From Candidatus Eiseniibacteriota bacterium (GTDB taxonomy: Bacteria; Eisenbacteria; RBG-16-71-46), in the NCBI GenBank assembly GCA_041483195.1, contig JBGPFC010000059.1, positions 1 through 12,744 on the forward strand: a stretch of DNA of 12,744 bases. Direction: 5' to 3'. Below are positions 1 to 12,744 of this stretch, piece after piece; positions within the stretch are counted from its first letter, which is position 1, and each line of letters starts with the position of its first letter. Below the pieces are notes generated by a model that was given only the letters and a program-made list of their open reading frames with translations, was not told the origin of the DNA and searched no databases. The position numbers and the translations under genes were made by a program.

Positions 1-875
<875 letters not shown>

Positions 876-917
876 GGTCACGAACCCCGGTTCGTTAGAG
901 TTGAGAGAGGGCGGCGA

Positions 918-1463
918 TCAGACGCCGACCTCGATGAGCTGATGCGAAATCGTGTCGAGCAGGGTGCGCACCGAGCGGTCCATGACGCGGTCGCCGATGC
1001 GGACCATCGCGCCCCCGAGCAGCGCGGGATCCACGCGGGTCCCGAGCTTGATGCGGCTGCCGGTCGCGCGCTCCAGCTCGCGGTGGAGCCGGTCGAGCTC
1101 GACCTTCTGGAGCGGCACCGCGCTCCACACCACGGCGCGCTGCACGCCCTGCGACTTCTCGACCCGCGCTTCGAACTCCTCGACGATGGTCGCGAACTCG
1201 GCGAGCCGCTTCTTGCGCAGCAGCAGGTCGAGAAACACGGCGACGGTGCGCACCACGCGGCCTTCGAGCGCGCCGCCGAGCGCCTTCAGCTTCACGGCGA
1301 GCCGCACCTCGGGCGACGCGAGAAACTGCCCGACCCGGGTGCGGGGCGCCACCACCTCGAGCAGGGCCTTCAGATCCGCGAGCGCGCGAGTCGTCTCGCC
1401 GCGCTTCTCGGTGATGAGGAAGAGCCCGTGCGCGTAACGGCCGGCGACGATCGAGTCTCTCAA
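918..1463 (-). CDS. atpH: F1Fo ATP synthase subunit delta (about 181 aa)
   Basis: 3' part of ORF 918..1874. Sequence (L)RDSIVAGRYAHGLF...VDPALLGGAMVRIGDRVMDRSVRTLL matches the delta/OSCP signature. The probable TTG start (1463-1461) overlaps the atpF TGA stop as TTGA, consistent with translational coupling. Confidence 0.95.
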   Translation of the reverse strand: MRDSIVAGRYAHGLFLITEKRGETTRALADLKALLEVVAPRTRVGQFLASPEVRLAVKLKALGGALEGRVVRTVAVFLDLLLRKKRLAEFATIVEEFEARVEKSQGVQRAVVWSAVPLQKVELDRLHRELERATGSRIKLGTRVDPALLGGAMVRIGDRVMDRSVRTLLDTISHQLIEVGV

Positions 1464-1948
1464 CGCAACGCCCCCAGTTCGTCGATGAACTCGCCCGCCA
1501 GCTTGCGCTGCGCGGGATCGTCGAGCTTCGCGCGCAGGATCTTCTCGGCGGTGCGGATCGAGAGGTGCACCACCTGCTGCTTGAGCAGCTCCCGCGCCTT
1601 CTCGCCCTCGCGCACGATCTCGTCCTGCGCGCGCGCGAGCCGGGTGGCGGCGTCGGCCTGGGCCTGGGTCTTGATCTCGGCCGCCACCTGCTGGCCCTCG
1701 GCGACCGCCTCCTGCAGGCGCTGGCGCGCACGGGCCTCGATCCCGCGCAGCTCCTGTTCGAAGCGGCCCTTCAGCTCGTCGGCCTCGGCGCGGGCACGCT
1801 CCGCCGCCGCGAAGTCGGTGACGATCTTCGCGCGACGCGCCTCGAGAATCTGGAGCAGCGGGCCGAACGCCCACTTGCGCAACGCCCAGATCAGGATCAG
1901 AAAGCCCAGGATCTGGGTGACGACCAGGCGTAGATCGATGAGATTCAT
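1460..1948 (-). CDS. atpF: Fo ATP synthase subunit b (162 aa)
   Basis: N-terminal TM helix (QILGFLILIWALRKWAFGPL), then LEARRAKI and a long Ala/Glu/Arg coiled coil ending in AEKIL. GGGGGAG SD upstream. Lies between c and delta. Confidence 0.96.
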   Translation of the reverse strand: MNLIDLRLVVTQILGFLILIWALRKWAFGPLLQILEARRAKIVTDFAAAERARAEADELKGRFEQELRGIEARARQRLQEAVAEGQQVAAEIKTQAQADAATRLARAQDEIVREGEKARELLKQQVVHLSIRTAEKILRAKLDDPAQRKLAGEFIDELGALR

Positions 1949-2023
1949 GTGCTCCCCCGCGGCCGCGCGGCCGGATCCCGAAGCGGGCGGACCCGGCGAC
2001 TCACGCCGATCGGACCCGCGTGC

Positions 2024-2257
2024 CTACTTGATCAGCCCGTTCAGCATGAGCATCGCGACGAACGCATAGATCGTGAGCGCCTCGGCGAGCGCGGCCACGA
2101 TGATCATGTTGATCTGGATCTTGCCGGTCGCCTCGGGCTGGCGGCCGATCGCCTGCATGGCGCCCGACCCGATGAGGCCGAGCCCTATTCCGGAGCCGAT
2201 CGCGGCGATGCCGATGCCGAGCGGGAGACCGAGCGCCAACGCTGCCTGGAAATTCAT
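2024..2257 (-). CDS. atpE: Fo ATP synthase subunit c (77 aa), probably H+-coupled
   Basis: ATG at 2257 with AGGAGG SD. Glycine motif GSGIGLG, loop RQPE, ion-binding Glu in ALAEALTIY. The ORF-track start at 2305 lies inside atpB and is unlikely. Confidence 0.98.
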   Translation of the reverse strand: MNFQAALALGLPLGIGIAAIGSGIGLGLIGSGAMQAIGRQPEATGKIQINMIIVAALAEALTIYAFVAMLMLNGLIK

Positions 2258-2276
2258 GGGTTCCTCCTGTGAAGGA

Positions 2277-3647
2277 TCAGTGGGCCGGATGCGCTGCTTC
2301 CTCATGCCCGTGTTCTTCGTGGGGCAGCATGAGGAGGATGTAAATGGTGCTGAGCACGGTGAACACGAACGCCTGCAGGCCGCTGGTGAGCAGCACCAGC
2401 GGGAAGAAGATCGCGTGCATCGGCATGCCGATCGGCAGATGCGCGAACGACAGCATCCCGATGCCGAGCGTTGCGAAGCCCACCATCAGCATATCCTCGC
2501 CGAAGATGTTGCCGAAGAGACGGCACGAGAGCGAGATCGGCTTGGCCAGCTCGCCCAGCACGTGGATCGGGAACATGAGCGGCGCGAGGATCCAGCCGGT
2601 GAGATTGCGCGGGCTGCCGAGCATGTGGTCGAGGTAGCCCACCACGCCGAGGCTGCGGACGCCGACGTACTGGACGTACACGAACACCGTGAGGCCCAGC
2701 GCGAAGGTGACGCTCAGGTTCGAGGTCGGCGAGTCCATGAGCGGGACGATGCCGAACAGGTTCATGGCGAAGATGTAGACGAAGATCGCGCCCAGGAACG
2801 GGAAGAAGCGCGGGCCATGGCTGGGCCCGAGGATCCCCACCACGAAATCGTAGAGCTGCTCGACCAGCGCCTCTGCGCCGTTCTGGAGCGGCCCCGGGAC
2901 CATCTGCGGGTTGCGGCTCGCGATGAATCCCACGACGCACAGCATGAGGCCGACGAACAGCGCGAACACCACCGCCTCGTAGTGATGGAGCACCTGCGCC
3001 CAGCGCTGGTGCGGAAACGCGCGCGTGACCAGCTCGAGCGCGTTCGGGAATTTCTGCGAGCCGGATTCCTCCTGGCCTTCTGCCTTCGCGACCGCCCCTT
3101 CGACTTTCGCGGCGGCCTCCGCCCCCTGCATCGCCCCCGCCACCGCGGGGGTCGCGGCGCGGCCGCTCGCGGACGCCGCGCGCTCGGTGCGGAACGCCGC
3201 GGGCAGCGCCCACCACGCGATCACGAGCAGCGCGGCGATCAGCGCCGCCGCGCGCCACGGGCTGCGCGTGAGCGCCGCCCATGCGCGGCTCTCGAGCACC
3301 GCGCGCGAGCCGGCCTTGAACACGATCGCGAGCAGCGGCAGCGAGAATCCGGCGGTGAGCCACAGAGCGGGCGTGTGGAACAGCAGCCATGCGCCCGCCG
3401 GGACCAGCGCGAGCAGACCCAGGAGGGCGAAGCCCGCGCGGCGCGCCGCGGGGGGAAGCATCGGCGCGGGCGAGATCACCGAGACGATCAGCGTCTGGAG
3501 CAGCGCGAGATTGATCAGCGACCACGCCGCGCCGCACGCGAGGCCCAGCCCGGCGAGCGGCGTGACGTAGGTCGCGACGATCAGCGTCGCGATCGCGGCC
3601 GCGGCCAGCGACACGCGGCGGACGCGAACCAGAAACTCGAGGCCCAT
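2277..3647 (-). CDS. atpB: Fo ATP synthase subunit a with an N-terminal AtpI-like membrane domain (456 aa)
   Basis: The C-terminal ~240 aa carry subunit-a motifs: PGPLQN, MNLFGIVP, SPTSNLSVT, KPISLSCRLFGNIFGED (essential Arg) and LQAFVF. The first ~115 aa hold four hydrophobic segments including GAAWSLINLALL. There is no in-frame stop between the two parts. Confidence 0.95.
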   Translation of the reverse strand: MGLEFLVRVRRVSLAAAAIATLIVATYVTPLAGLGLACGAAWSLINLALLQTLIVSVISPAPMLPPAARRAGFALLGLLALVPAGAWLLFHTPALWLTAGFSLPLLAIVFKAGSRAVLESRAWAALTRSPWRAAALIAALLVIAWWALPAAFRTERAASASGRAATPAVAGAMQGAEAAAKVEGAVAKAEGQEESGSQKFPNALELVTRAFPHQRWAQVLHHYEAVVFALFVGLMLCVVGFIASRNPQMVPGPLQNGAEALVEQLYDFVVGILGPSHGPRFFPFLGAIFVYIFAMNLFGIVPLMDSPTSNLSVTFALGLTVFVYVQYVGVRSLGVVGYLDHMLGSPRNLTGWILAPLMFPIHVLGELAKPISLSCRLFGNIFGEDMLMVGFATLGIGMLSFAHLPIGMPMHAIFFPLVLLTSGLQAFVFTVLSTIYILLMLPHEEHGHEEAAHPAH

Positions 3648-3664
3648 GGTGAGAGAGTGCCCGG

Positions 3665-3919
3665 TCAGGGGCGCCCTTCGCGCTCCTCTTCTGCCTGATG
3701 ACGGCGGTAGATCAGGTAGGTCTCACGGCCGGCGGCGGCGAAGCCCAGCATCAGCCCGAGGATGCCGAACCAGGGTGCGGACTTCAGCCATCGATCCACC
3801 AGGCTGCCCAGGAAGTACCCGACGAGGGGCGCGACGATGAGCAGCGTGGGGATCGCGAGCAGCATTCCGGCGCTCCGCAGGGCCGAGTAGTCCGATTTCG
3901 TCCGCCGCGGCTCCGACAT
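3665..3919 (-). CDS. AtpZ/AtpI-family ('ATPase gene 1') small membrane protein (84 aa)
   Basis: ATG at 3919 with GGAG 8 nt upstream. The pattern GYFLGSLVDRWLKSAPWFGILGLMLGFAAAG is typical of the two-TM gene-1 family. It is the first gene of the atp operon. Confidence 0.9.
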   Translation of the reverse strand: MSEPRRTKSDYSALRSAGMLLAIPTLLIVAPLVGYFLGSLVDRWLKSAPWFGILGLMLGFAAAGRETYLIYRRHQAEEEREGRP

Positions 3920-3930
3920 GTCGCTCACTC

Positions 3931-3948
3931 CGGTGAAACTTTTCACAA
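3931..3948. promoter_or_regulatory. Putative Rex operator in the atp operon leader
   Basis: CGGTGAA-ACTT-TTCACAA matches the Rex consensus TTGTGAA-N4-TTCACAA at 12 of 14 positions. It lies between the predicted promoter and the first RBS. Confidence 0.65.
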
Positions 3949-3994
3949 GCGCCGTGCAAACGTCGCAGGATCAACGCATGCACAAAGCCGAAGC

Positions 3995-4023
3995 AATGTA
4001 GGGAAAGGGCTCCCCGGGGTCAA
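3995..4023 (-). promoter_or_regulatory. Sigma70-type promoter of the atp operon
   Basis: On the minus strand: TTGACC (4023-4018), 17-bp spacer, TACATT (4000-3995), about 75 nt upstream of the first start codon. Confidence 0.75.
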
Positions 4024-4131
4024 CCGCAAAGTCGCCTTTCGGCCCGGATTCGCCGACCGGGCGATCACCTCTATATAGGCCGCCAGCCGGTGGCGATCGG
4101 AGCCCGGCGCGCGCCGGGCGGGCCCCGGCAC

Positions 4132-4161
4132 TTGGCCCGCCGCGCGCCCTGCCCCTATGCT
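4132..4161 (+). promoter_or_regulatory. Putative sigma70 promoter for the NUDIX-yajQ unit (leaderless or near-leaderless mRNA)
   Basis: TTGGCC (4132-4137), 18-bp spacer, TATGCT (4156-4161). The GTG start follows 8 nt later and no SD is visible. Confidence 0.5.
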
Positions 4162-4169
4162 GCGCGGCC

Positions 4170-4694
4170 GTGTCCGCCATCAAGCCCACCCAGGTCGAGG
4201 TCCACGTGTTCCGGCGCAGCGGCCGGGCGGTCGAGTTCCTCTGCCTGAGGCGCTCGAAGCGGTCGCGTCTTCCCGGCGTGTGGCAACCCGTGACCGGCAC
4301 GCTGCGTCGCGGCGAGGGCGCGCTGGCCGGCGCGGCGCGCGAGGTGGGCGAGGAGACCGGGCTCGTGCCGATCAGGTGGTGGGCGCTCGAGAGCGTGTCT
4401 GTGTATTTCGACGGGCGCAGCGGGCTGGTTCACGCGCTGCCGATCTTCGCGGCGGAGGTGGGGGCGCGCGAAACGGCGAGGCTCTCGGCGGAGCACGACG
4501 CGGCTCGCTTCCTCCCGGCGCGCAGGGCCGCCGCGAGTTTTCTGTGGGACGCTCAGCGCCGCGCGCTCGAGGCGGTGCGGCGCGAGGTGCTGCGCGGCGG
4601 TGCGCTCGCGCGCGCGCTCGAGGTCACCAATCAACTGTTACGACGCACTCGCGCCAGAACGGCTCGGCGCGCCACGCGTCGCAAACCTTCATAG
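4170..4694 (+). CDS. NUDIX hydrolase, NudB (dihydroneopterin triphosphate diphosphatase)-like
   Basis: Intact Nudix box GTLRRGEGALAGAAREVGEETGL (GX5EX7REUXEEXGU), preceded by LRR...WQPVTG and followed by LSAEH, as in NudB-like proteins. Arg/Lys-rich C-terminal tail. Confidence 0.88.
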   Translation: MSAIKPTQVEVHVFRRSGRAVEFLCLRRSKRSRLPGVWQPVTGTLRRGEGALAGAAREVGEETGLVPIRWWALESVSVYFDGRSGLVHALPIFAAEVGARETARLSAEHDAARFLPARRAAASFLWDAQRRALEAVRREVLRGGALARALEVTNQLLRRTRARTARRATRRKPS

Positions 4695-4703
4695 GAGATT
4701 TCA

Positions 4704-5210
4704 GTGGCCAGCACGAACTCGTTCGACGTCACGACCGGCGTGGACTTCATGGAAGCGCACAACGCCGTGGATCAAGCCACCAAGGAGATCACGCAGCGTT
4801 ACGACTTCAAGGGACTCAAGATCACGATCGAGCTGAACCAGAAGGAGAAGACCATCACGCTCTCGGCGCCCGACGAGTTCAAGCTCAAGGCGGTGTGGGA
4901 CGTGCTGCAGGCCAAGATGGTGCGGCGCCAGGTGCCACTCAAGAATCTCAAGCCGGGCGTCGTCGATGCCGCGGCGATGGCGAGCGTGCGGCAGGTGATC
5001 GCGATCCAGGACGGCCTCACCGCCGACATGGCCCGCGAGGTCGCGCGCGTGATCAAGGACGCGAAGCTCAAGAAGGTGCAGGCCGCGATCCAGGGCGACA
5101 CCGTGCGTGTCTCGTCGGCCGACAAGGACGCGCTGCAGGGCGTGATCGCGCTGCTCAGGGGACAGGAGTTCGACTTCGAGCTGAAGTTCGGGAACTACCG
5201 ATCGAACTAG
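4704..5210 (+). CDS. yajQ: YajQ-family nucleotide/cyclic-di-GMP-binding protein (168 aa)
   Basis: Motifs SFDV, NAVDQA.KEI..RYDFKG, IKDAKLKKVQAAIQGD.VRVS and D.LQ.VIALL...F.NYR. AGGAG SD before the GTG start. Confidence 0.97.
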   Translation: MASTNSFDVTTGVDFMEAHNAVDQATKEITQRYDFKGLKITIELNQKEKTITLSAPDEFKLKAVWDVLQAKMVRRQVPLKNLKPGVVDAAAMASVRQVIAIQDGLTADMAREVARVIKDAKLKKVQAAIQGDTVRVSSADKDALQGVIALLRGQEFDFELKFGNYRSN

Positions 5211-6064
5211 CGATGGCGCGCGCGGAGGGGCGCGGCGATGGGCAGGATCGCGATCGCGGAGGCGATCTGCTGAGTGTCGGTCGAGCCCACGCTCCGCTCG
5301 CCGGCCGGGAGCCTGACGCGAAGGCCGGACTCGATGCCGCCGCTGAGATTCAGGGCCGCGGTGCAGCCGAGTCCGCCCTGCGCCTCGCTCTTCAGCATCA
5401 GCCCCGCGATGTCGTAGAGGTGGGCCTCGCCGGTCGCGATCAGCAGCAGTCGCCCCTGCTGATCGAGCCCGATGACCGAGCGGCGGTAGGGCGGAGACTT
5501 TCGCTCGATGAGGTCGATGCCGTTTTTCCCCGGCCGCTCGATGACGATCGGGCCGGACTGGATGGCCTGCGCGAAGACCCCGTTCTTGAAAGATGCCTTC
5601 GCGATGATGTCGGCGCCGTCCGGCCCCACGCAGAAGACACCACTCTGTGACGAGCTGCGCGCGTTGAGACCCGTGACGACCTTCCCGTCCTGCACCACCA
5701 GCCCCGCCGGAATCGGCAGGGAGTATGTCGCGGTGAAGCCGCCGTTGATCGCTGCGATCATCCGAGGGAATTTCTTCCAGACATCGAGCAGCGTGTAGGT
5801 GCGCGATTGCGTGGCCATCGGGGCGCGGAGGGCCGAGTACACGCCAATCACCTGCAGCTTCACCTGGGCAGGTTCGCAGCGCACGACGGAGACGCTCAGC
5901 GGGCTCTTCGGCTCGCCCACGTTGGGACTCCACTCCGCGTAGGAGACGCCGGGCGCCACCGTCGTCCACGTGATCTGCGCGAGCGCGGCGCCAGGGGTTG
6001 CGATCGGCAGTATGGCGACTATCGCGAGCGCCGCACCCAGACCGTGGCCACGTGACGCGCGCAT
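5207..6064 (-). CDS. Secreted phosphodiester glycosidase (NAGPA/DUF2233)-like protein (285 aa) with variant signature motif
   Basis: ATG at 6064 begins a signal-peptide-like stretch ending AALA-Q. Family motifs AAINGGF, GLVVQDGK, QSGPIVI, RSVIGLD and ALNLSGG are present. The ORF-track extension to 6259 overlaps the upstream gene. Confidence 0.82.
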   Translation of the reverse strand: MRASRGHGLGAALAIVAILPIATPGAALAQITWTTVAPGVSYAEWSPNVGEPKSPLSVSVVRCEPAQVKLQVIGVYSALRAPMATQSRTYTLLDVWKKFPRMIAAINGGFTATYSLPIPAGLVVQDGKVVTGLNARSSSQSGVFCVGPDGADIIAKASFKNGVFAQAIQSGPIVIERPGKNGIDLIERKSPPYRRSVIGLDQQGRLLLIATGEAHLYDIAGLMLKSEAQGGLGCTAALNLSGGIESGLRVRLPAGERSVGSTDTQQIASAIAILPIAAPLRARHR

Positions 6065-6072
6065 GCCGGGCC

Positions 6073-6606
6073 CTAGTCTTCGGGATTCTGCCGGTACACG
6101 AGCACCAGGCAGTCGCACGTGATCACGGCGTCGGGGTCGAGGATGCCGGGCGCGATCGTGATGCTGTGGACGTTGTCGCCCACCCCGGCGTCGAATCGAA
6201 GCTTCTCGGTGATGTCCGACTGGACGAAGCCGTCGGGGATCTTGCCGACGCGCTCCCACTTCTGGCCGTCGATCGATCCCAGGAGGCTCGCGTTTCCCAC
6301 CGCGCTCGCGTTGAGCGTGACCTTCACGGTCTGGCCCTTCATCGCATAGAAGAGGATCTGACGCGGCAGCCGATTGGCGTTGTCGAAGATCATCCCCGAC
6401 GAATAGCCCGCATCCACGCGCCGCGAGACCTGCTTCAGCACGTAATCGGACAGGCCGAACGCCTTGTCGAGGAACTGCGGGGTCAGGCCTTCGCGCCCCA
6501 GGAATCCCACGAAGATCGCGATGGCGCCGACCAGCGCGCTGGGGGCCATGCTGGCGAGAGCGGATGGGATGCTCTTCGCGAATCCTTGATCGGGATGGCG
6601 CGGCAC
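6073..6606 (-). CDS. Hypothetical protein with one N-terminal hydrophobic segment and a beta-rich C-terminal domain (177 aa)
   Basis: GTG at 6606 preceded by a strong SD, GGAGGTGA (6618-6611). Hydrophobic stretch ALVGAIAIFVGFLG and protein-like composition. It ends 8 nt before the next gene. No family recognised. Confidence 0.75.
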   Translation of the reverse strand: MPRHPDQGFAKSIPSALASMAPSALVGAIAIFVGFLGREGLTPQFLDKAFGLSDYVLKQVSRRVDAGYSSGMIFDNANRLPRQILFYAMKGQTVKVTLNASAVGNASLLGSIDGQKWERVGKIPDGFVQSDITEKLRFDAGVGDNVHSITIAPGILDPDAVITCDCLVLVYRQNPED

Positions 6607-6711
6607 GGTCTCACCTCCGGACTGCAGCGAGCCGACGAACCCGACCGGGATAGTGAATTCTCGTACGCCCAAGATCAAGGTCTGAGTGATCGGTGATCGG
6701 GCGCCTTTGGG

Positions 6712-8286
6712 CTACCGCTTCCACGCCTCCCGCACCACCGCCTCGATCAATCCCGGCAGCCGATCGAACGCGTATGGCGCATTCACGCGCTCGAACAACC
6801 CGTGCGCGTCGCGGCCCCATGGGCCGAGCGTCACCACGTCGAGATCGAGCGCCGCGGCGGCCGCGGCCGGCAACCGGTACTCGCGCCCCAGCGCGGGCAT
6901 GAAGCGCGCGACCGTCTCCGCCGGGTCCGCGCGCCACGCGAGGTAGGCCGCGTCGCTCACGTAGGGATAGAACGCGCGGAAGTCGAGCCCCTCGTGTTCG
7001 AGCACCGCCGCCGCCGCGCGCTCGAGCGCGCCGTCACGCGGCGCGGCCGCCGGATACCAGGGCGGAAGCAGGCTCAGCACCACGAGGGGCCCTGCGAGCT
7101 TCGCCGCGCGCGCGAGATGATTCAGCCGCTCGCGCAGCCGCTCGCGCGTGTCGCCAGAGCGCGGCCCATCGCCGAGCGGATCGGCGTCCGGCGCGAACCC
7201 CGCGCGCTCGAGCAGCTCGGGATACGTGAGCACGCGGCTCCGCGGATCGAACCCGCCGCGTGACGCCGCGGCGCGGCCCGCCCAGCGCGAGAGATCCGCC
7301 ATCGCGCGCGACCACTCGTCGAGCGCCTCGATCGCCACCTCGCGCAGCTGGTGCATGGTCTCGGCGAGCGGGCGCGCGAACGTGACCAGGTTGATCTCGG
7401 CCACCGCCTCGGCCGCGGTCTGCAGGTTGTAGCCGGACTTCAAGTCGCGCAGGCGCAGCGCCACGGCCGGCGCGCCGTGCAGATGCTCCCATCGATCGAC
7501 CAGCGCTCGCGAGCGCGTCGCGCGCGCGACCACCGCCGCCGCGAGCTGGATCGCGTCAACGCCATCGAGCGGGGCGGCCGCGTGGGTCGGCACGCCGAGC
7601 GCCCACACGTGCGCGAGGGCCTTGCCCATGACGCCGCTGTACGCGGACGGGCGCTCGACGTAATCGAGGTTGATCGCGCCCGCCAGCTCGAGCCCCTGCT
7701 CGGTCGCGAGGCGCGCGATCGCATCCACCGCCGCACGCATGCCGGCCGACTCGTGCTCCTCGTCGGGCGTGGCGACGAACAGCACGCCGCCCTCGAGCGC
7801 GTCGCGCTCGCGCGCGAGGCGATCGATCGCGGCCACGCCCGCCGCGAGGCCGCCCTTCATGTCGAGCGCACCGCGCCCGAACATCCAGGTGCCGGGCGTC
7901 TCGCGCTCCTCTTCGAGATCGCGGGCGAGCGCCTCGGGCTGGCTCGCGGCGTGCGCGGGATCGAGCAGCCACGCGCGCAGCGCGGAGCAGTCGAACGCGA
8001 GCGGCGCGTCCGCGCGGGAATCGATCGCCGCGAACTCGGAGACCCCGACCGTGTCGTAGTGCCCGAGCAGCAGCACGGTGCGAGGCGAGCGCCCGCGGAG
8101 ACTCGCATGCACGATCGGCCGCCCGTCCGCGGCCGGCCAGGTGCCGCGCTCGAGGCCTGCGGGCAGCGTATCGAGCAGTGCGCGAGCGCAACGCGCCTCG
8201 CCCTCCGGGTCTGGGCTCACGCTGGGAATCGCGACCAGGCGCTCGGCGAGCGAGCGAGCGGCGGCGGCCTGCGGGCTTTCGCGCAC
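6712..8286 (-). CDS. M20/M25/M40 metallohydrolase, RocB-like (about 524 aa)
   Basis: Metal-ligand motifs LLGHYDTV, WMFGRGALDMKGG, TPDEEHESAGM and GPWGRDAHGLFERV. RocB-type segments YSGVMGK, RDLKSGYNLQT and FYPYVSD. Start placed at GTG 8286; TTG 8325 is the alternative. Confidence 0.9.
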   Translation of the reverse strand: MRESPQAAAARSLAERLVAIPSVSPDPEGEARCARALLDTLPAGLERGTWPAADGRPIVHASLRGRSPRTVLLLGHYDTVGVSEFAAIDSRADAPLAFDCSALRAWLLDPAHAASQPEALARDLEEERETPGTWMFGRGALDMKGGLAAGVAAIDRLARERDALEGGVLFVATPDEEHESAGMRAAVDAIARLATEQGLELAGAINLDYVERPSAYSGVMGKALAHVWALGVPTHAAAPLDGVDAIQLAAAVVARATRSRALVDRWEHLHGAPAVALRLRDLKSGYNLQTAAEAVAEINLVTFARPLAETMHQLREVAIEALDEWSRAMADLSRWAGRAAASRGGFDPRSRVLTYPELLERAGFAPDADPLGDGPRSGDTRERLRERLNHLARAAKLAGPLVVLSLLPPWYPAAAPRDGALERAAAAVLEHEGLDFRAFYPYVSDAAYLAWRADPAETVARFMPALGREYRLPAAAAAALDLDVVTLGPWGRDAHGLFERVNAPYAFDRLPGLIEAVVREAWKR

Positions 8287-8452
8287 GCCGGCTACGCCCC
8301 GACCGCGAACCGGCGGTGGAGCCAATGCGAATTCAGCTCGAGGATGGAGTCCTCGCGGTGGAGTGAGGTTCGAGTTCAGCCTGCGTGAACGGGCGCCACG
8401 TTATCGCACCCGGGCCAGAACATATAACGCGTGCGGTCCACGAAGTTTGCGA

Positions 8453-8481
8453 TTGACCCACCGCCGGGGCACGTCTAGCGT
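8453..8481 (+). promoter_or_regulatory. Sigma70-type promoter facing the FG-GAP gene
   Basis: TTGACC (8453-8458), 17-bp spacer, TAGCGT (8476-8481). Predicted start site at about 8487-8488 (GGG). Confidence 0.65.
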
Positions 8482-8486
8482 CAATT

Positions 8487-8911
8487 GGGCCTACGTGGGG
8501 TCGTCCACTCTTGGGCCCGCCGTCGGGGTGTTCCACATCCCCGGCCGAGGACGGATCGGGTTCAATCTCCGCGAACGGCTGGATCGGACCATCCGGTCCA
8601 GGACTCGATGGGGCCAGGCGGAATCCCAACGAGTGAGGTCGCGATTCCGCCGGATCGCGACGCGCCGACCTCAGTCCGGCTCAGAAATCGATTGCATCGA
8701 GCGACAGGCATGCGCCGGGACGGTGCGAATCATATTCATTCCGTCCTCACGCGATCCCTCCCGCCGGCCGCAACCCCGACCGTGGGATTCGCCTGCCACG
8801 CTCCACATTCCCCGTGTGCTCCCGGGACTCGAGCCTCATTGAAGACGACGCGGATGCGAATCCGGAGGCATTCCCGTAGGGCCGCCGTTGGCTCGACAAC
8901 GAGGAGCACCC
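8487..8911 (+). other. Long hairpin-rich 5' leader or possible structured RNA
   Basis: No convincing ORF. Successive stems at 8487-8518, 8519-8579, 8579-8601, 8615-8628/8783-8795 (enclosing 8634-8673 and 8717-8747) and 8851-8864. No known RNA family recognised. Confidence 0.35.
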
Positions 8912-11900
8912 ATGCGTTCGAGATCGCGCCGTCGCGTCGCATCGCCCTTTGCGAGCTTCATTCGAAGTACGCGCGTTCCGAGCAGCCCCGCATTTGGAAC
9001 CATGAACGCGCGCGTCCTCGTCGCGGTGATCGCGGTCGCATTCTCATGCGCCGTGCATTGGCGCGACGCCCTGGCCCAGGGCTTTGGTGCCCCTACCGAC
9101 TTCGCGACCGGATCGTCGCCGACCTCGGTCGTGACCGGAGACCTGAACGGCGACGGCAAACCCGACCTGGTGTTGGCGAACAGGGCCTCCAATACGGTCT
9201 CGGTGCTGCTGGGTACAGGCGGCGGTAGCTTCGGTGGCAAGACCGACTTCGCGACCGGGGTCAATCCACAATCGGTAGCGATCGGAGACCTGAACGGCGA
9301 TGGCAAGCCCGACCTGGTAGCGGCGAACTTCAGCTCCGGCACGGTTTCGGTGCTGCTCGGGACCGGCACCGGCAGCTTCGGGGCCAAGACCGACTACGCG
9401 GTCGAGACCAGCCCGTACTCGGTGGCCATCGGCGACGTCAACAGCGATGGCAAACTGGACCTGGTGGTGGCGAACTCAGCCGCCCGCAGGATCTCGGTGC
9501 TAGTCGGCATTGGAAACGGCGACTTTCTTCCTGTGTCCGACTTCTCGATCAACACCGGGTTCCTTCCTTACTCCGTGGCGATCGGTGACCTCAACGGTGA
9601 TGGCAAGCCCGACCTGGCGGTGGCGAACAATGGCTCCAATACCGTTTCGGTGATGCTCGGGACCGGCGGCGGCAGCTTCGGGGCCAAGACCGACTTCGCG
9701 ACCGGGAGCGGTCCCTACTCAGTGGCGATCGGGGACCTGAGCGCGGATGGCAAGCCCGACCTCGCGGTGGCGAACCAGGGCGCCAGCACGATCTCGGTGC
9801 TGCTCGGCACCGGCGGCGGCAGTTTCGCACCGAAGACCGACTACTCGGTCACGTCCGATCCTTCCTCGGTGGCGATCGGAGACGTGAATGGCGACGGGAA
9901 GGCGGACCTGGTGACGGTCAACCTGGGCTGGACTACGGTCTCGGTGCTGCTCGGGACCGGAGGCGGCAGCTTCGGGGCGAACACCGAGTTCGCGGCCGGA
10001 CCCAATCCCTATTCGGTCGCGATCCGGGATCTCAACGGCGACGGCAAGCCCGACCTGGCGGTGGCCAATTTCGGCGCCAACACGGTTTCCGTGCTGCTCA
10101 ACACCTATTCTCCCCCGCCCCCACCGACGCCCACTCCGTTGATTTTCGGGAAGCTCGATTTCGCAACCGGGAGCGGTCCACAATCGGTGGCGATCGGCGA
10201 TCTCAACGTCGACGGCAAGCTCGACCTGGCGGTAACGAACTCCGGCGTCGGCACCGTCTCGGTGCTGCTCGGTACCGGCGGCGGCAGCTTCGGTGCGAAG
10301 ACCGACTTCGCGACCGGGTCCTCTCCCGGAACCAATCCTCAGTCCGTTGCGATCGGAGACCTGAACGGCGACGGCAAGCCCGACCTGGCTGTGGCGAACT
10401 TCGCCGTCAACACGGTCTCGGTGCTGCTCGGGACCGGGGGCGGCGGCTTCGGTCCGAGGACCGACTACACGACCGGAACGAATCCTCAATCGGTGGCGAT
10501 CGGGGACCTCAACGGCGACGGCCGGCTCGACCTCGCGGTCGCGAACAACGATTCCTGGACGATCTCGGTGTTCCTCGGCACCGGCGGCGGCAGCTTCGGC
10601 GCCAAGACCGACTTCGGGACCGGCATCGGCCCTCAATCGGTGGCGATCGGGGACCTCAACGGAGACGGCAAGCTCGATCTCGCGGTGGCGAATTCCAAGT
10701 TCGACAATACGGTCTCCGTATTCCTCGGGACCGGGACCGGCAGCTTCGGGGCCCGGACCAACTTCGTGACCGGGGGCGGTCCAATATCGGTGGCGATCGG
10801 GGACCTCAACAGTGACGGCAAGCTCGACCTGGCGGTGGCGTGCTCCGGCACCAGCACGATCGCAGTGTTCCTCGGAACTGGAACCGGCAGCTTCGGCGCG
10901 AAGACGGAATACGCTACCGGCACCACCCCGGGCTCGGTGGCGATCGGCGACCTGAACGGCGACGGCAGGCCCGACCTGGCGGCGTCGAACATTAGTTCCA
11001 ACACGGCCTCGGTCCTGCTCGGAACCGGCGGCGGCGGCTTCGGGGCGAAGACCGACTACGCGACCGGGACCATTCCCCGCACGGTCGCGATCGGGGACCT
11101 GAATCTCGATGGCCGTCCCGACCTGGCGATTGCGAATGGCACTGCCACCACGGTCTCGGCGCTGCTCAACGGCATCGACGCCACTCCGCCGACTGTGCAC
11201 GTGGTCTCGCCCAATGGCGGGGAGACGATCGACGAAGGCACGGTGACCAAGATTGCATGGACCGCGAGCGACGACCTCGGCGTGGATCACGTGGACCTCT
11301 ACTACTCGTTCAACAGTGGAGCGAGCTACACGCTCATCGCGTCGAGCCAGCCCAACAGCGGCACGTTCAACTGGTCGGTGCCTTCCATCCCAATCAATGA
11401 GAATGCTCGTGTGAGGGTCGTGGCGTTCGACGCCGCGAGCAATAGTGCCGCGGATGCGAGCGACGCCGACTTCACGATCTTGGATCAGGGCGTGCCGGTG
11501 GTCACGGTGGTCGCACCCAACGGCGGAGAGACGCTCGCCGAACAGGCAACCACCACCATCTCGTGGACGGCGAGCGACAATCTCGGCGTGGACCACGTGG
11601 ATATCTACTATTCGGTGGATGGTGGCTCCACCTTCCTCACGGTCGCCGAGTTCGAGGCGAACGATGGGAGCTACGTCTGGACCGTCCCCATCACGCCGAC
11701 GACGCGGGGACGGGTGCGGGTGGTGGCGGTCGATGCCGCCGGCAATGCCGCGGCGGACACGAGCGATGCAGACTTCACCATCGAGGACGAGGGCATGTTC
11801 GCAACCGAGGCCTTCCCCATCTCTGTGGCGATCGGGGACCTGAACCGCGACGGCAAAGCCGACCTGGCGGTGGGAAACATCGGCTCCAGCACGATCTCGA

Positions 11901-12631
11901 TTCTGCTCGCGACCGGTGGCGGGGGCTTCGGTCCCAAGACCGAGTTCGCAGCCGGGACAAGCCTCCAACACATAGCAATCGGGGACCTGAATGCGGACGG
12001 CATTCCCGATCTCGTGGCCGCGAACGGTGAACCTAGTACGGTCTCGGTGCTGCTCGGGACCGGCAGCGGCGGCTTCGGACCGAAGACCACCTTCACAACC
12101 GGAACCCAGCCCAGCTCGGTGGCGATCGGGGACCTCAACGCGGACGGCAAGCCGGACCTGGCGGTGGCGGACGGAAACTCCAACGCGATCTCCGTGCTGA
12201 TTGGTACCGGTACCGGCAGCTTCGGGGCCAAGACCGACTTCGCGGCGGGGACCACCCCCGTTTCAGTCGCGATCGCGGACTTCAACGCGGATGGAAAGCC
12301 AGACCTGGCGGTGGCGAATGCCGGCTTCGGGACGAACACGGTCTCGGTGTTGCTCGGAACCGGCGGCGGCGGCTTCGGAGTCAAGACCGACTTCGCGAGC
12401 GGGAACGGAGCCCGATTCCTCGCGGTCGGCGACTTCAATGGAGACGGCCGGCCCGATCTCGCGGTCGCGAACTACGGGGGCTTCTCGGTCTCCGTCCTGC
12501 TAGGTCTTGGCGACGGCGGCTTCGGGGCCAAGACCGATTTCGCAACCGGGATGGGGCCTCAGTCGATTGCAATCGGGGATCTGAATGGGGACGGCAAGCC
12601 CGACCTAGCCCGGATTATTCACAAGAAGTGA
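8912..12631 (+). CDS. Large secreted FG-GAP/VCBS-repeat beta-propeller protein with two Ig-like modules; C-terminus truncated by an insertion (possible pseudogene)
   Basis: GAGGAG SD at 8901-8906 before ATG 8912 (alternative ATG 9002). Signal peptide ends ALA-Q. There are 20 copies of (G/A/R)D(L/V/F)xxDGxxDL and two PNGGET...W.ASD.LGVDHVD...DF(T)I modules. The frame ends abruptly as PDLA-RIIHKK*. Confidence 0.92.
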   Translation: MRSRSRRRVASPFASFIRSTRVPSSPAFGTMNARVLVAVIAVAFSCAVHWRDALAQGFGAPTDFATGSSPTSVVTGDLNGDGKPDLVLANRASNTVSVLLGTGGGSFGGKTDFATGVNPQSVAIGDLNGDGKPDLVAANFSSGTVSVLLGTGTGSFGAKTDYAVETSPYSVAIGDVNSDGKLDLVVANSAARRISVLVGIGNGDFLPVSDFSINTGFLPYSVAIGDLNGDGKPDLAVANNGSNTVSVMLGTGGGSFGAKTDFATGSGPYSVAIGDLSADGKPDLAVANQGASTISVLLGTGGGSFAPKTDYSVTSDPSSVAIGDVNGDGKADLVTVNLGWTTVSVLLGTGGGSFGANTEFAAGPNPYSVAIRDLNGDGKPDLAVANFGANTVSVLLNTYSPPPPPTPTPLIFGKLDFATGSGPQSVAIGDLNVDGKLDLAVTNSGVGTVSVLLGTGGGSFGAKTDFATGSSPGTNPQSVAIGDLNGDGKPDLAVANFAVNTVSVLLGTGGGGFGPRTDYTTGTNPQSVAIGDLNGDGRLDLAVANNDSWTISVFLGTGGGSFGAKTDFGTGIGPQSVAIGDLNGDGKLDLAVANSKFDNTVSVFLGTGTGSFGARTNFVTGGGPISVAIGDLNSDGKLDLAVACSGTSTIAVFLGTGTGSFGAKTEYATGTTPGSVAIGDLNGDGRPDLAASNISSNTASVLLGTGGGGFGAKTDYATGTIPRTVAIGDLNLDGRPDLAIANGTATTVSALLNGIDATPPTVHVVSPNGGETIDEGTVTKIAWTASDDLGVDHVDLYYSFNSGASYTLIASSQPNSGTFNWSVPSIPINENARVRVVAFDAASNSAADASDADFTILDQGVPVVTVVAPNGGETLAEQATTTISWTASDNLGVDHVDIYYSVDGGSTFLTVAEFEANDGSYVWTVPITPTTRGRVRVVAVDAAGNAAADTSDADFTIEDEGMFATEAFPISVAIGDLNRDGKADLAVGNIGSSTISILLATGGGGFGPKTEFAAGTSLQHIAIGDLNADGIPDLVAANGEPSTVSVLLGTGSGGFGPKTTFTTGTQPSSVAIGDLNADGKPDLAVADGNSNAISVLIGTGTGSFGAKTDFAAGTTPVSVAIADFNADGKPDLAVANAGFGTNTVSVLLGTGGGGFGVKTDFASGNGARFLAVGDFNGDGRPDLAVANYGGFSVSVLLGLGDGGFGAKTDFATGMGPQSIAIGDLNGDGKPDLARIIHKK
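9077..12608 (+). repeat. Intragenic tandem ~150-bp FG-GAP-type repeats in blocks of 7, 7 and 6 (last one truncated)
   Basis: Recurrent DNA such as tcggtggcgatcggggacctcaacggcgacggcaagcccgacctggcggtggcgaac and ggcggcagcttcggggccaagaccgacttcgcgacc. Blocks lie at about 9077-10104, 10141-11170 and 11795-12608. Confidence 0.93.
11177..11782 (+). repeat. Two tandem ~100-aa Ig-like modules
   Basis: 11177-11479 and 11483-11782 share V.VV.PNGGET, W.ASD.LGVDHVD.YYS, RVRVVA.DAA.N and D.SDADFTI. Confidence 0.85.
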
Positions 12632-12744
12632 GGAACACGAAGACCTCCGTGTGGTAGAAAGCGGTTGTCGACGCCACTCTCTTCCACGGACGGAGGTCTT
12701 CGCGTGTCGCACTCTACCACGACACCCTGTGTACTGTTCCCGGA
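12609..12744 (+). mobile_element. Left end of an insertion sequence, probably IS1380 family (continues beyond the window)
   Basis: The repeat sequence stops at GACCTAG and switches to the more AT-rich CCCGGATTATTCACAAG, which resembles IS1380-type ends as I recall them. An internal inverted repeat, an SD and a new ORF start follow. The right end and target duplication are not visible. Confidence 0.72.
12704..12744 (+). CDS. Putative transposase N-terminus (IS1380-like), partial
   Basis: GGAGG at 12692-12696, then GTG at 12704 giving MSHSTTTPCVLFP(D/E). This resembles the 'T..CVLFP' starts I associate with IS1380 transposases. Only 13 codons are visible. Confidence 0.6.
   Translation, partial: MSHSTTTPCVLFP

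Follow-up and report, generated by a model that had tools for sequence, protein, structure and literature searches.

Is an assembly factor of the ATP synthase, usually the product of a gene of its own, built into a core subunit of the enzyme, and if so, what joins the two parts and do they stay together? This question is raised by a locus in a stretch of 12,744 nucleotides from a Candidatus Eiseniibacteriota bacterium of the phylum Eisenbacteria (assembly GCA_041483195.1, contig JBGPFC010000059.1, positions 1 to 12,744), referred to as the window. On its minus strand lie the first genes of an F-type ATP synthase operon, in the order atpZ, fused gene, atpE, atpF, atpH and atpA, and the fused gene (2277..3647, minus strand; 456 codons and a stop codon) encodes an AtpI-like domain, a fifth hydrophobic helix, a linker and the Fo subunit a in a single ATG-to-stop open reading frame (ORF). 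The original prediction, made from the sequence of the window, was that an AtpI module is fused in frame to subunit a. This core claim is supported by profile comparisons and orthologues, not by the Pfam check suggested along with it. In our judgement the gene very probably encodes a real fusion of AtpI and subunit a, joined through a former signal peptide. Beyond the fusion itself, the new points are the derivation of the joint from a signal peptide, the occurrence of three states in the phylum and the question of cleavage. In open-access papers and preprints no description was found of a fusion of AtpI and subunit a, of an Eisenbacteria ATP synthase or of a signal peptide on a bacterial subunit a.

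A continuous and conserved reading frame

The ORF of 456 amino acids at 2277-3647 was confirmed as uninterrupted from ATG to stop, and its start, MGLEFL..., is kept in both fused and stand-alone relatives. A gene of this kind might be an artefact or a pseudogene, in which a lost stop codon or an indel in the assembly has joined two genes. Contigs of other sequencing runs in Logan (runs X3, X4 and X5, from three other sediment samples, possibly of one campaign) cover the positions 2200-3402, 2900-3321, 2884-3257 and 3257-3840, and thus span the N-terminal domain, the joint and the linker; they are identical to the window, with 0 differing letters and 0 gaps. A further run, X1, may represent the source sample, and no RNA run was among the sequencing runs listed as holding the sequence. 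The same fusion was sought in 41 related genomes and found as one open frame in 34, the others having separate genes (3), a locus broken at contig ends (3) or no match (1). Moreover, 17 further metagenome proteins of 438-495 amino acids combine the same N-terminal domain with PF00119, and eight more long proteins (453-561 amino acids) among the matches of the N-domain profile described below were confirmed as fusions.

The fused gene is the only gene with PF00119 in the genome, which is estimated to be 96.8% complete, and no separate PF03899 gene was found by a profile search of it. A second weak PF03899 match in this genome (C8, 19.8 bits) lies within a membrane protein of 502 amino acids with many helices and was dismissed as a chance match. 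The stretch between the two domains, i.e., the fifth helix and the linker, ranges from 39 to 165 residues across the fused relatives and is variable in sequence, while always remaining in frame; this maintenance of the frame speaks for translation through the joint. When 121 genomes were sampled evenly across the phylum (18 families of one class, labelled f1, f2 and so on, with the window belonging to f1), fusions with a conserved N-terminal domain were present in 76 genomes from eight families. The frameshifts encountered in the fused genes of two relatives, G022 and G104, lie within the subunit a part and not at the joint. No support for an artefact was found; as far as sequence can show, it is already refuted, and its probability is close to nil. 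Judged by these comparisons, the fused gene is a genuine, conserved and selected natural fusion and not a slip of the assembly.

The frameshifted genes of G022 (loci L059/L037) and G104 (L079) are both located on long contigs, that of G022 being a one-contig genome; either the assembly contains an indel here or the sole atpB copy is truly disrupted. The fused gene is also carried by four records with the titles Verrucomicrobiia (L026), Methylomirabilota (L027), Saccharimonadaceae (L038) and Terriglobales (L051). Their subunit a nests inside the Eisenbacteria family of the window, suggesting mislabelled or contaminated bins rather than transfer.

Assignment of the N-terminal domain to the AtpI family

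The N-terminal domain comprises the residues 1-125 (3273..3647, minus strand). The four hydrophobic helices that had been noticed in it are recovered in an AlphaFold2 model at the residues 3-27, 30-58, 65-91 and 94-118 with a pLDDT of about 90; the model was built from an alignment of 18 rows, has a pTM of 0.34 and is good only for this domain, with a pLDDT of 50-70 in the subunit a part. The G..WSL.NL motif picked out in the original prediction is present without change, as G39..W42-S43-L44-x-N46-L47, in all 18 full-length relatives, the invariant residues of the domain being Y27, G39, W42, S43, L44, N46, L47, G100, F101 and P104. Also the position is that expected for atpI, directly after atpZ (PF09527) and before subunit a, and in the split relatives a separate gene is found at this place of the operon.

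Several results weigh against an assignment to the AtpI family. With Pfam, the residues 1-125 reach 9.7 bits (E 1.6) for PF03899, below the cut-off of 25.1, in a weak alignment spanning the profile positions 1-86 of 99, so that the check proposed for the domain failed; in the genome search the score was 9.0 bits. A scan of the domain against NCBIfam gave no match, and the single AtpI sequence of E. coli K-12 shows no similarity to the profiles of the N-terminal domain (E 0.47 and 0.21). The latter is a single divergent sequence and was therefore dropped as an anchor, and PF03899-positive relatives were used instead.

These relatives connect the domain to the family. A profile of 12 N-terminal domains, compared with 1.84 billion representative sequences, retrieved 414 proteins at E <= 0.001, most of which are stand-alone proteins of 120-160 amino acids matching the profile positions 1-125 only. 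When 72 sequences, namely 70 stand-alone profile matches chosen by length, P0029 and the N-terminal domain of the window, were scanned with Pfam, PF03899 was matched in 53 at E <= 1 and in 18 at E <= 1e-4, the sole other family at that level being the related AtpR, which occurred once. In the sample of the phylum, PF03899 exceeds its cut-off in 17 of the 121 genomes, in four of them in stand-alone genes and in 13 inside fused ORFs (12 in the family f10 and one, G008, in the window's own family). Finally, a comparison by hhalign of 14 N-terminal domains of f1, with that of the window first, to seven PF03899-positive relatives resulted in a probability of 99.2% and E 1e-19 over 122 of 125 columns. 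By homology, the N-terminal domain is thus a divergent member of the AtpI/UncI family, though failing the curated score alone. Among sequences of solved structures, a profile search for an AtpI relative gave nothing below E 0.5, and a complex prediction of the domain with three c subunits (score 0.04, compared with a mark of 0.32) speaks neither for nor against binding. In G039, a relative of the family f5 with lower GC content (L019, 968-2422), about 60 residues are inserted into the loop that connects the helices 2 and 3 of the AtpI-like domain, and only the first two helices are covered in one piece by the matches to Pfam and to the profile.

The subunit a part

Subunit a proper corresponds to the residues 199-456 (2277..3053, minus strand, with the stop codon at 2277-2279) and starts from a conserved K-F-P-N motif. 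As predicted, it matches PF00119 (ATP-synt_A): the residues 227-437 cover the profile positions 2-216 of 217 with E 7.7e-50 and 170.2 bits against a cut-off of 33.9. TIGR01131 is passed as well by the fused protein (129.3 bits, cut-off 102.6), and BLASTP of the subunit a part to E. coli AtpB gives E 1e-18. In a pairwise alignment Arg376, encoded at 2520..2522 within the motif LSCRLFGN, aligns with Arg210 of E. coli subunit a, the essential arginine facing the c-ring; it is invariant in 18 of 18 relatives. Judged by these data, the subunit a part is complete and catalytically intact. The whole profile, the arginine and the position before atpE are shared with canonical subunit a, from which the fused protein differs by about 200 additional N-terminal residues. 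Split relatives of type II, described below, depart from the canonical form by a cleavable-looking signal peptide followed by a His/acid-rich periplasmic extension.

Origin of the joint

Between the two domains lies a fifth hydrophobic helix, absent from the original prediction, at the residues ~129-151 (SPWR-AAALIAALLVIAWWALPAAF-RTER; 3195..3263, minus strand), which the model places as a helix at 130-162 with a pLDDT of about 78 and in which W131, A133 and W145 are nearly invariant among relatives. It is followed by an Ala/Glu-rich low-complexity linker (residues ~152-198; 3054..3194, minus strand), with a low-confidence, disordered region (pLDDT <50 at 165-200) before the K-F-P-N of subunit a; the linker is presumably located in the periplasm. 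Stand-alone AtpI relatives stop after helix 4, and the fifth helix is therefore not part of AtpI.

Its source becomes apparent by comparison with 21 split relatives, in which subunit a starts with Met, a basic n-region and a hydrophobic core that often ends in A-x-A (e.g., ...GGAFA/ES, ...PGSAWA/SS and ...PTVQA/EG, the slash marking the end of the segment), followed by a His/acid-rich stretch and the ELPN of mature subunit a. In fused relatives the equivalent segment is internal, as in ...VRAFA/QD and ...SLALA/QE. The signal peptides of the split relatives and of the fusions in f3, f10 and f11 were recognized as Sec-type by eye. Since the segment occupies the same place in split and fused forms, the fifth helix is regarded as the internalized signal peptide of subunit a, and by this comparison the helix of the window descends from a Sec-type signal peptide. 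Read as such, it has an n-region with R121, R128 and R132, 20 uncharged residues and then AAF/RTER.

The signal-peptide-bearing form of subunit a is itself unusual. In eight families the separate gene opens with a Sec-type signal peptide, behind which lie 40-120 residues rich in His, Asp and Glu and then ELPN, with examples in L064, L066, L070, L083, L085, L088 and other split relatives. With such a precursor, a tail rich in His and acidic residues would come to lie where the proton entry channel opens to the periplasm; this form is interesting in itself. Homologues of subunit a that are made with leader peptides are known from yeast, where Atp6 is cut by Atp23, and from chloroplasts (CFo-IV).

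A topological argument leads to the same segment. Basic residues cluster before helix 1 (three Arg), in the loop between the helices 2 and 3 (two Arg) and between the helices 4 and 5 (K111, R115, R121, R128 and R132), and these clusters suggest that the AtpI domain would end in the cytoplasm. Bacterial subunit a has a periplasmic N-terminus. With AtpI ending inside and subunit a starting outside, one more crossing of the membrane is needed, which the fifth helix would supply.

Ribosomes might also initiate within the ORF, for example at the GTG of codon 117 or at another in-frame start before the fifth helix. A subunit a with its own signal peptide would then be produced, either along with the fusion or in its place. 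The GTG of codon 117 is in frame and lies ahead of both the basic stretch and the fifth helix, and split relatives place the ancestral atpB start at about this position. However, no Shine-Dalgarno-like sequence lies at the right distance from this GTG, while atpE has an AGGAGG, the residue 117 is not kept as Val, Met or a Leu start in the alignment of 18 sequences, and the fused loci L067 and L071 are without a Met ahead of the segment. Moreover, an internal start would not explain the open frame across a variable linker in 76 genomes. We consider synthesis of two products to be very improbable.

Distribution and history in the phylum

In the sample of 121 genomes, the loci of a part of which were checked individually, the two genes are fused in the 76 genomes mentioned above and split in 29; the remaining 16 were left unclassed due to contig ends, a missing match or a locus outside those inspected. 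The count of fused genomes includes the frameshifted G022 and G104 as well as G098, which was judged solely from an alignment starting at residue 114, and the fused count of f3 rests partly on an unpublished genome (G026). The atpI-atpB region was additionally taken from 40 further genomes spread over the families and classed with our own profiles.

Three states can be distinguished. Type I (8 of the 29 split genomes) has a separate atpI and an atpB with a short N-terminus lacking a hydrophobic segment; it is found in f2, f12 (four of five genomes) and f16 and also in two records of more remote relationship, one of which bears the label Latescibacteria. Type II (21 of the 29) has a separate atpI and an atpB encoding the signal peptide and the His/acid-rich stretch (about 40-120 residues); it is found in f7, f8, f9, f11 (two of three genomes), f14, f15, f17 and f18. 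Type III is the fusion, found in f1, the family of the window, in f3, f4, f5, f10 and f13 and in single genomes of f11 and f12. A stop codon between the two halves in relatives had been named as an observation that would speak against the original prediction. Such a stop is indeed present in the 29 split genomes, but both halves are intact separate genes there and the fusion is not refuted; rather, these relatives confirm the homology of both halves.

The history of the subunit a part was followed in a quick maximum-likelihood tree of 81 rows, from which G026, L037 with its frameshift, duplicates of identical sequence and loci whose a-domain is not nearly complete were excluded. On this single-gene tree the label fused or not fused requires nine changes by parsimony, at least three of which are forced by well-supported branches, the counts being rough. 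A single origin without reversal is thus unlikely, as judged from this tree. The comparison suggests a stepwise route from plain atpI and atpB genes via an atpB with signal peptide and His/acid-rich extension to the fusion.

In five of 34 non-fused loci (L053, L054, L060, L066 and L085) atpI and atpB share one reading frame that is interrupted between them by a single stop codon, and one point change would fuse them; this share is no higher than expected by chance. Programmed read-through of such stops was considered and dropped, as these loci are not enriched. For G045 (L066) the alignment of the genome search ran straight across the TGA.

Is the joint cut?

If the fifth helix was once a signal peptide, it may still be processed as one. 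In the reading that we develop here for f1, the protein would be translated as one membrane chain of 456 residues, the AtpI domain inserting with its N-terminus and its C-terminus inside. Helix 5 would cross outwards and export the linker, and subunit a would follow in its normal orientation with the N-terminus in the periplasm. The fifth helix would no longer be cut in f1 and would act as a permanent anchor, so that each subunit a would carry one AtpI module, tethered by about 50 flexible residues, in a fixed ratio of 1:1. Alternatively, the chain might be a polyprotein that signal peptidase I cuts after the fifth helix, so that the products would be an AtpI of five helices and a mature subunit a of the normal kind with its N-terminal extension in the periplasm; the fusion would then only enforce synthesis at 1:1 and insertion side by side, and the finished enzyme would be ordinary.

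The residues directly behind the hydrophobic segment favor the uncut chain in f1. An Arg or Lys is found there in 17 of 32 rows of the f1 clade, compared with 3 of 21 split signal peptides and 4 of 14 other fusions. A positive charge just behind a cleavage site hinders export and processing, and the basic residue after the helix therefore counts against cleavage in f1. The joint of the window, ...WWALPAAF/RTER, has no clean A-x-A, and the conserved SPWR...AWW pattern of f1, with its belt of two Trp and about 20 uncharged residues in the helix, likewise counts against processing.

Other observations weigh against an uncut chain. The fifth helix is located exactly where the split relatives have the N-terminal signal peptide of subunit a, and several fused families retain a textbook A-x-A: the fusions of f3, f10, f11 and some of f13 keep the n-region, the hydrophobic core and A-x-A, followed by Q, E, D or S. 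A small-x-small triplet ends 5 of 14 rows labelled f1, about a third, and in the window a site such as ALPA/AF may be cleaved. Two features do not discriminate between the forms, namely an A-x-A or small-x-small end (16 of 46 fused and 10 of 21 split sequences) and the median length of the uncharged stretch (21.5 in fused and 21 in split sequences). The repeated switching between the fused and the split state, at least three times in the phylum, is expected if the mature products are the same, and it is easier to understand if the fusion is nearly neutral, i.e., if the joint is still cut. A precedent exists in FbcH of Bradyrhizobium, a cytochrome b-c1 precursor that is cut at an internal signal peptide. 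FbcH resembles the present case in that two membrane components of one energy-converting complex are made as one chain with a signal-like segment in between; it differs in that its upstream partner is a subunit and not an assembly factor.

Taken together, we put the chances that the fused protein stays in one piece in the family of the window at about even, and we regard cleavage into two products as a serious possibility that nevertheless falls short of being probable. The further step, that the AtpI module of an uncut chain is never released and remains a permanent appendage of the stator, with its four helices and the fifth, beside subunit a at the rotor, appears rather doubtful to us. If this were true, it would be the first ATP synthase with a built-in assembly factor and a natural construct fixing AtpI at the interface of the subunits a and c. 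An uncut joint would mean a stator with five extra membrane helices, the four of AtpI and that of the joint, and a cut joint a polyprotein strategy for assembling a rotary motor.

Possible role and comparison with known systems

AtpI, found from bacteria to chloroplasts, where it occurs as CGL160, has a conserved place at the head of atp operons; in E. coli it is dispensable, and its mode of action is poorly defined. The closest known protein to the N-terminal domain is stand-alone AtpI/UncI/Atp1 (PF03899), which is encoded first in many F-type operons. Both have about 120 residues and four membrane helices, both are encoded between atpZ and atpB, and they are homologous at the level of profiles; unlike the stand-alone protein, the domain of the window is encoded in the N-terminal third of the gene for subunit a, and its sequence has diverged to a score below the Pfam cut-off.

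Passages of PMC9806626 and PMC8904574 describe a role of the family in c-ring assembly, in the enzymes of the Propionigenium type and of Acetobacterium and in chloroplasts, citing Suzuki 2007, Ozaki 2008 and Brandt 2013, as well as interactions of CGL160 with the subunits c and b; Atp1 of Synechocystis is presented in a passage of PMC9806626 with four membrane helices, TM1-TM4. From this documented role, we infer that the fused module would act in cis as an assembly factor, promoting the formation of the c-ring and delivering the ring to the adjacent subunit a. This role as a chaperone in cis, the topology and the absence of cleavage are the inferred parts of the reading developed for f1.

The N-terminal domain might also be AtpI by descent but act together with AtpZ in the handling of cations such as Mg2+, the fusion then putting this activity at the stator. 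The gene directly upstream of the fusion is atpZ, whose family PF09527 is described as 'putative F0F1-ATPase subunit Ca2+/Mg2+ transporter', and a passage of PMC3543383 attributes to atpZ and atpI a part in the import of Mg2+, with reference to Hicks et al. 2003. However, the best-documented role of the family, according to the passages of PMC9806626 and PMC8904574 referred to above, is c-ring assembly, and nothing in the sequence favors a transporter, making a function in cation handling improbable. The two roles are not mutually exclusive.

The closest known fusion within the AtpI family is CGL160 of plants and green algae, in which, as described in a passage of PMC9806626, an AtpI-like membrane domain is combined with an N-terminal domain recruiting CF1. 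As in the window, an AtpI-family domain is covalently joined to a module serving ATP synthase assembly; CGL160 shows that members of the family can be fused to other modules and can connect steps of the assembly. The partner there is soluble, lineage-specific and N-terminal, whereas here it is a core subunit, located C-terminally and connected via a membrane helix.

A lineage tying one AtpI to each subunit a implies that AtpI works next to subunit a at a ratio of 1:1. The fusion thereby offers a natural construct for biochemistry and cryo-electron microscopy, which could help to find out what AtpI does.

The operon and its surroundings

The other genes at the front of the operon all lie on the minus strand. 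The small membrane protein AtpZ ('gene 1') is encoded at 3665..3946 and exceeds the cut-off of PF09527 (ATPase_gene1; E 1.9e-10, 41.1 bits, cut-off 26.6); its ORF is listed from a GTG at 3946, the ATG at 3919 with a GGAG ahead being the likelier start. Downstream of the fused gene follow atpE (2024..2257), encoding subunit c of 77 amino acids (PF00137, E 6.3e-16), with an AGGAGG ahead and a Glu59 that is invariant across 42 relatives, and atpF (1460..1948), encoding subunit b of 162 amino acids (PF00430, E 9.1e-23). Subunit delta is encoded by atpH (918..1469), for which PF00213 (OSCP) matches the residues 143-313 of an ORF of 318 amino acids with E 6.3e-38. Its probable start, read from the sequence, is the GTG at 1469, which overlaps the end of atpF (stop codon 1460-1462) by 10 bases; the stop-to-stop frame extends 400 bases upstream into atpF, as is common at such a GC content. 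The N-terminal 293 amino acids of subunit alpha (PF00006 and PF02874) are encoded by atpA (3..881), which runs off the window.

On the other side of atpZ ordinary neighbors are found, namely a NUDIX hydrolase (4170-4694, plus strand), a DUF520/YajQ-type protein (4704-5210, plus strand), a phosphodiester glycosidase with an NAGPA domain (5207-6259, minus strand) and an M20/M28 peptidase (6712-8325, minus strand). An ORF of 201 amino acids without a Pfam match (6073-6678, minus strand) overlaps the NAGPA ORF and is probably not a gene. The far end of the window encodes a protein of 1247 amino acids (8888-12631, plus strand) with a signal-like N-terminus, 19 FG-GAP/FG-GAP_3 repeats (E 3.4e-202) and two central Ig-like domains of the Big_7 type, which resembles a large repetitive surface or secreted protein.

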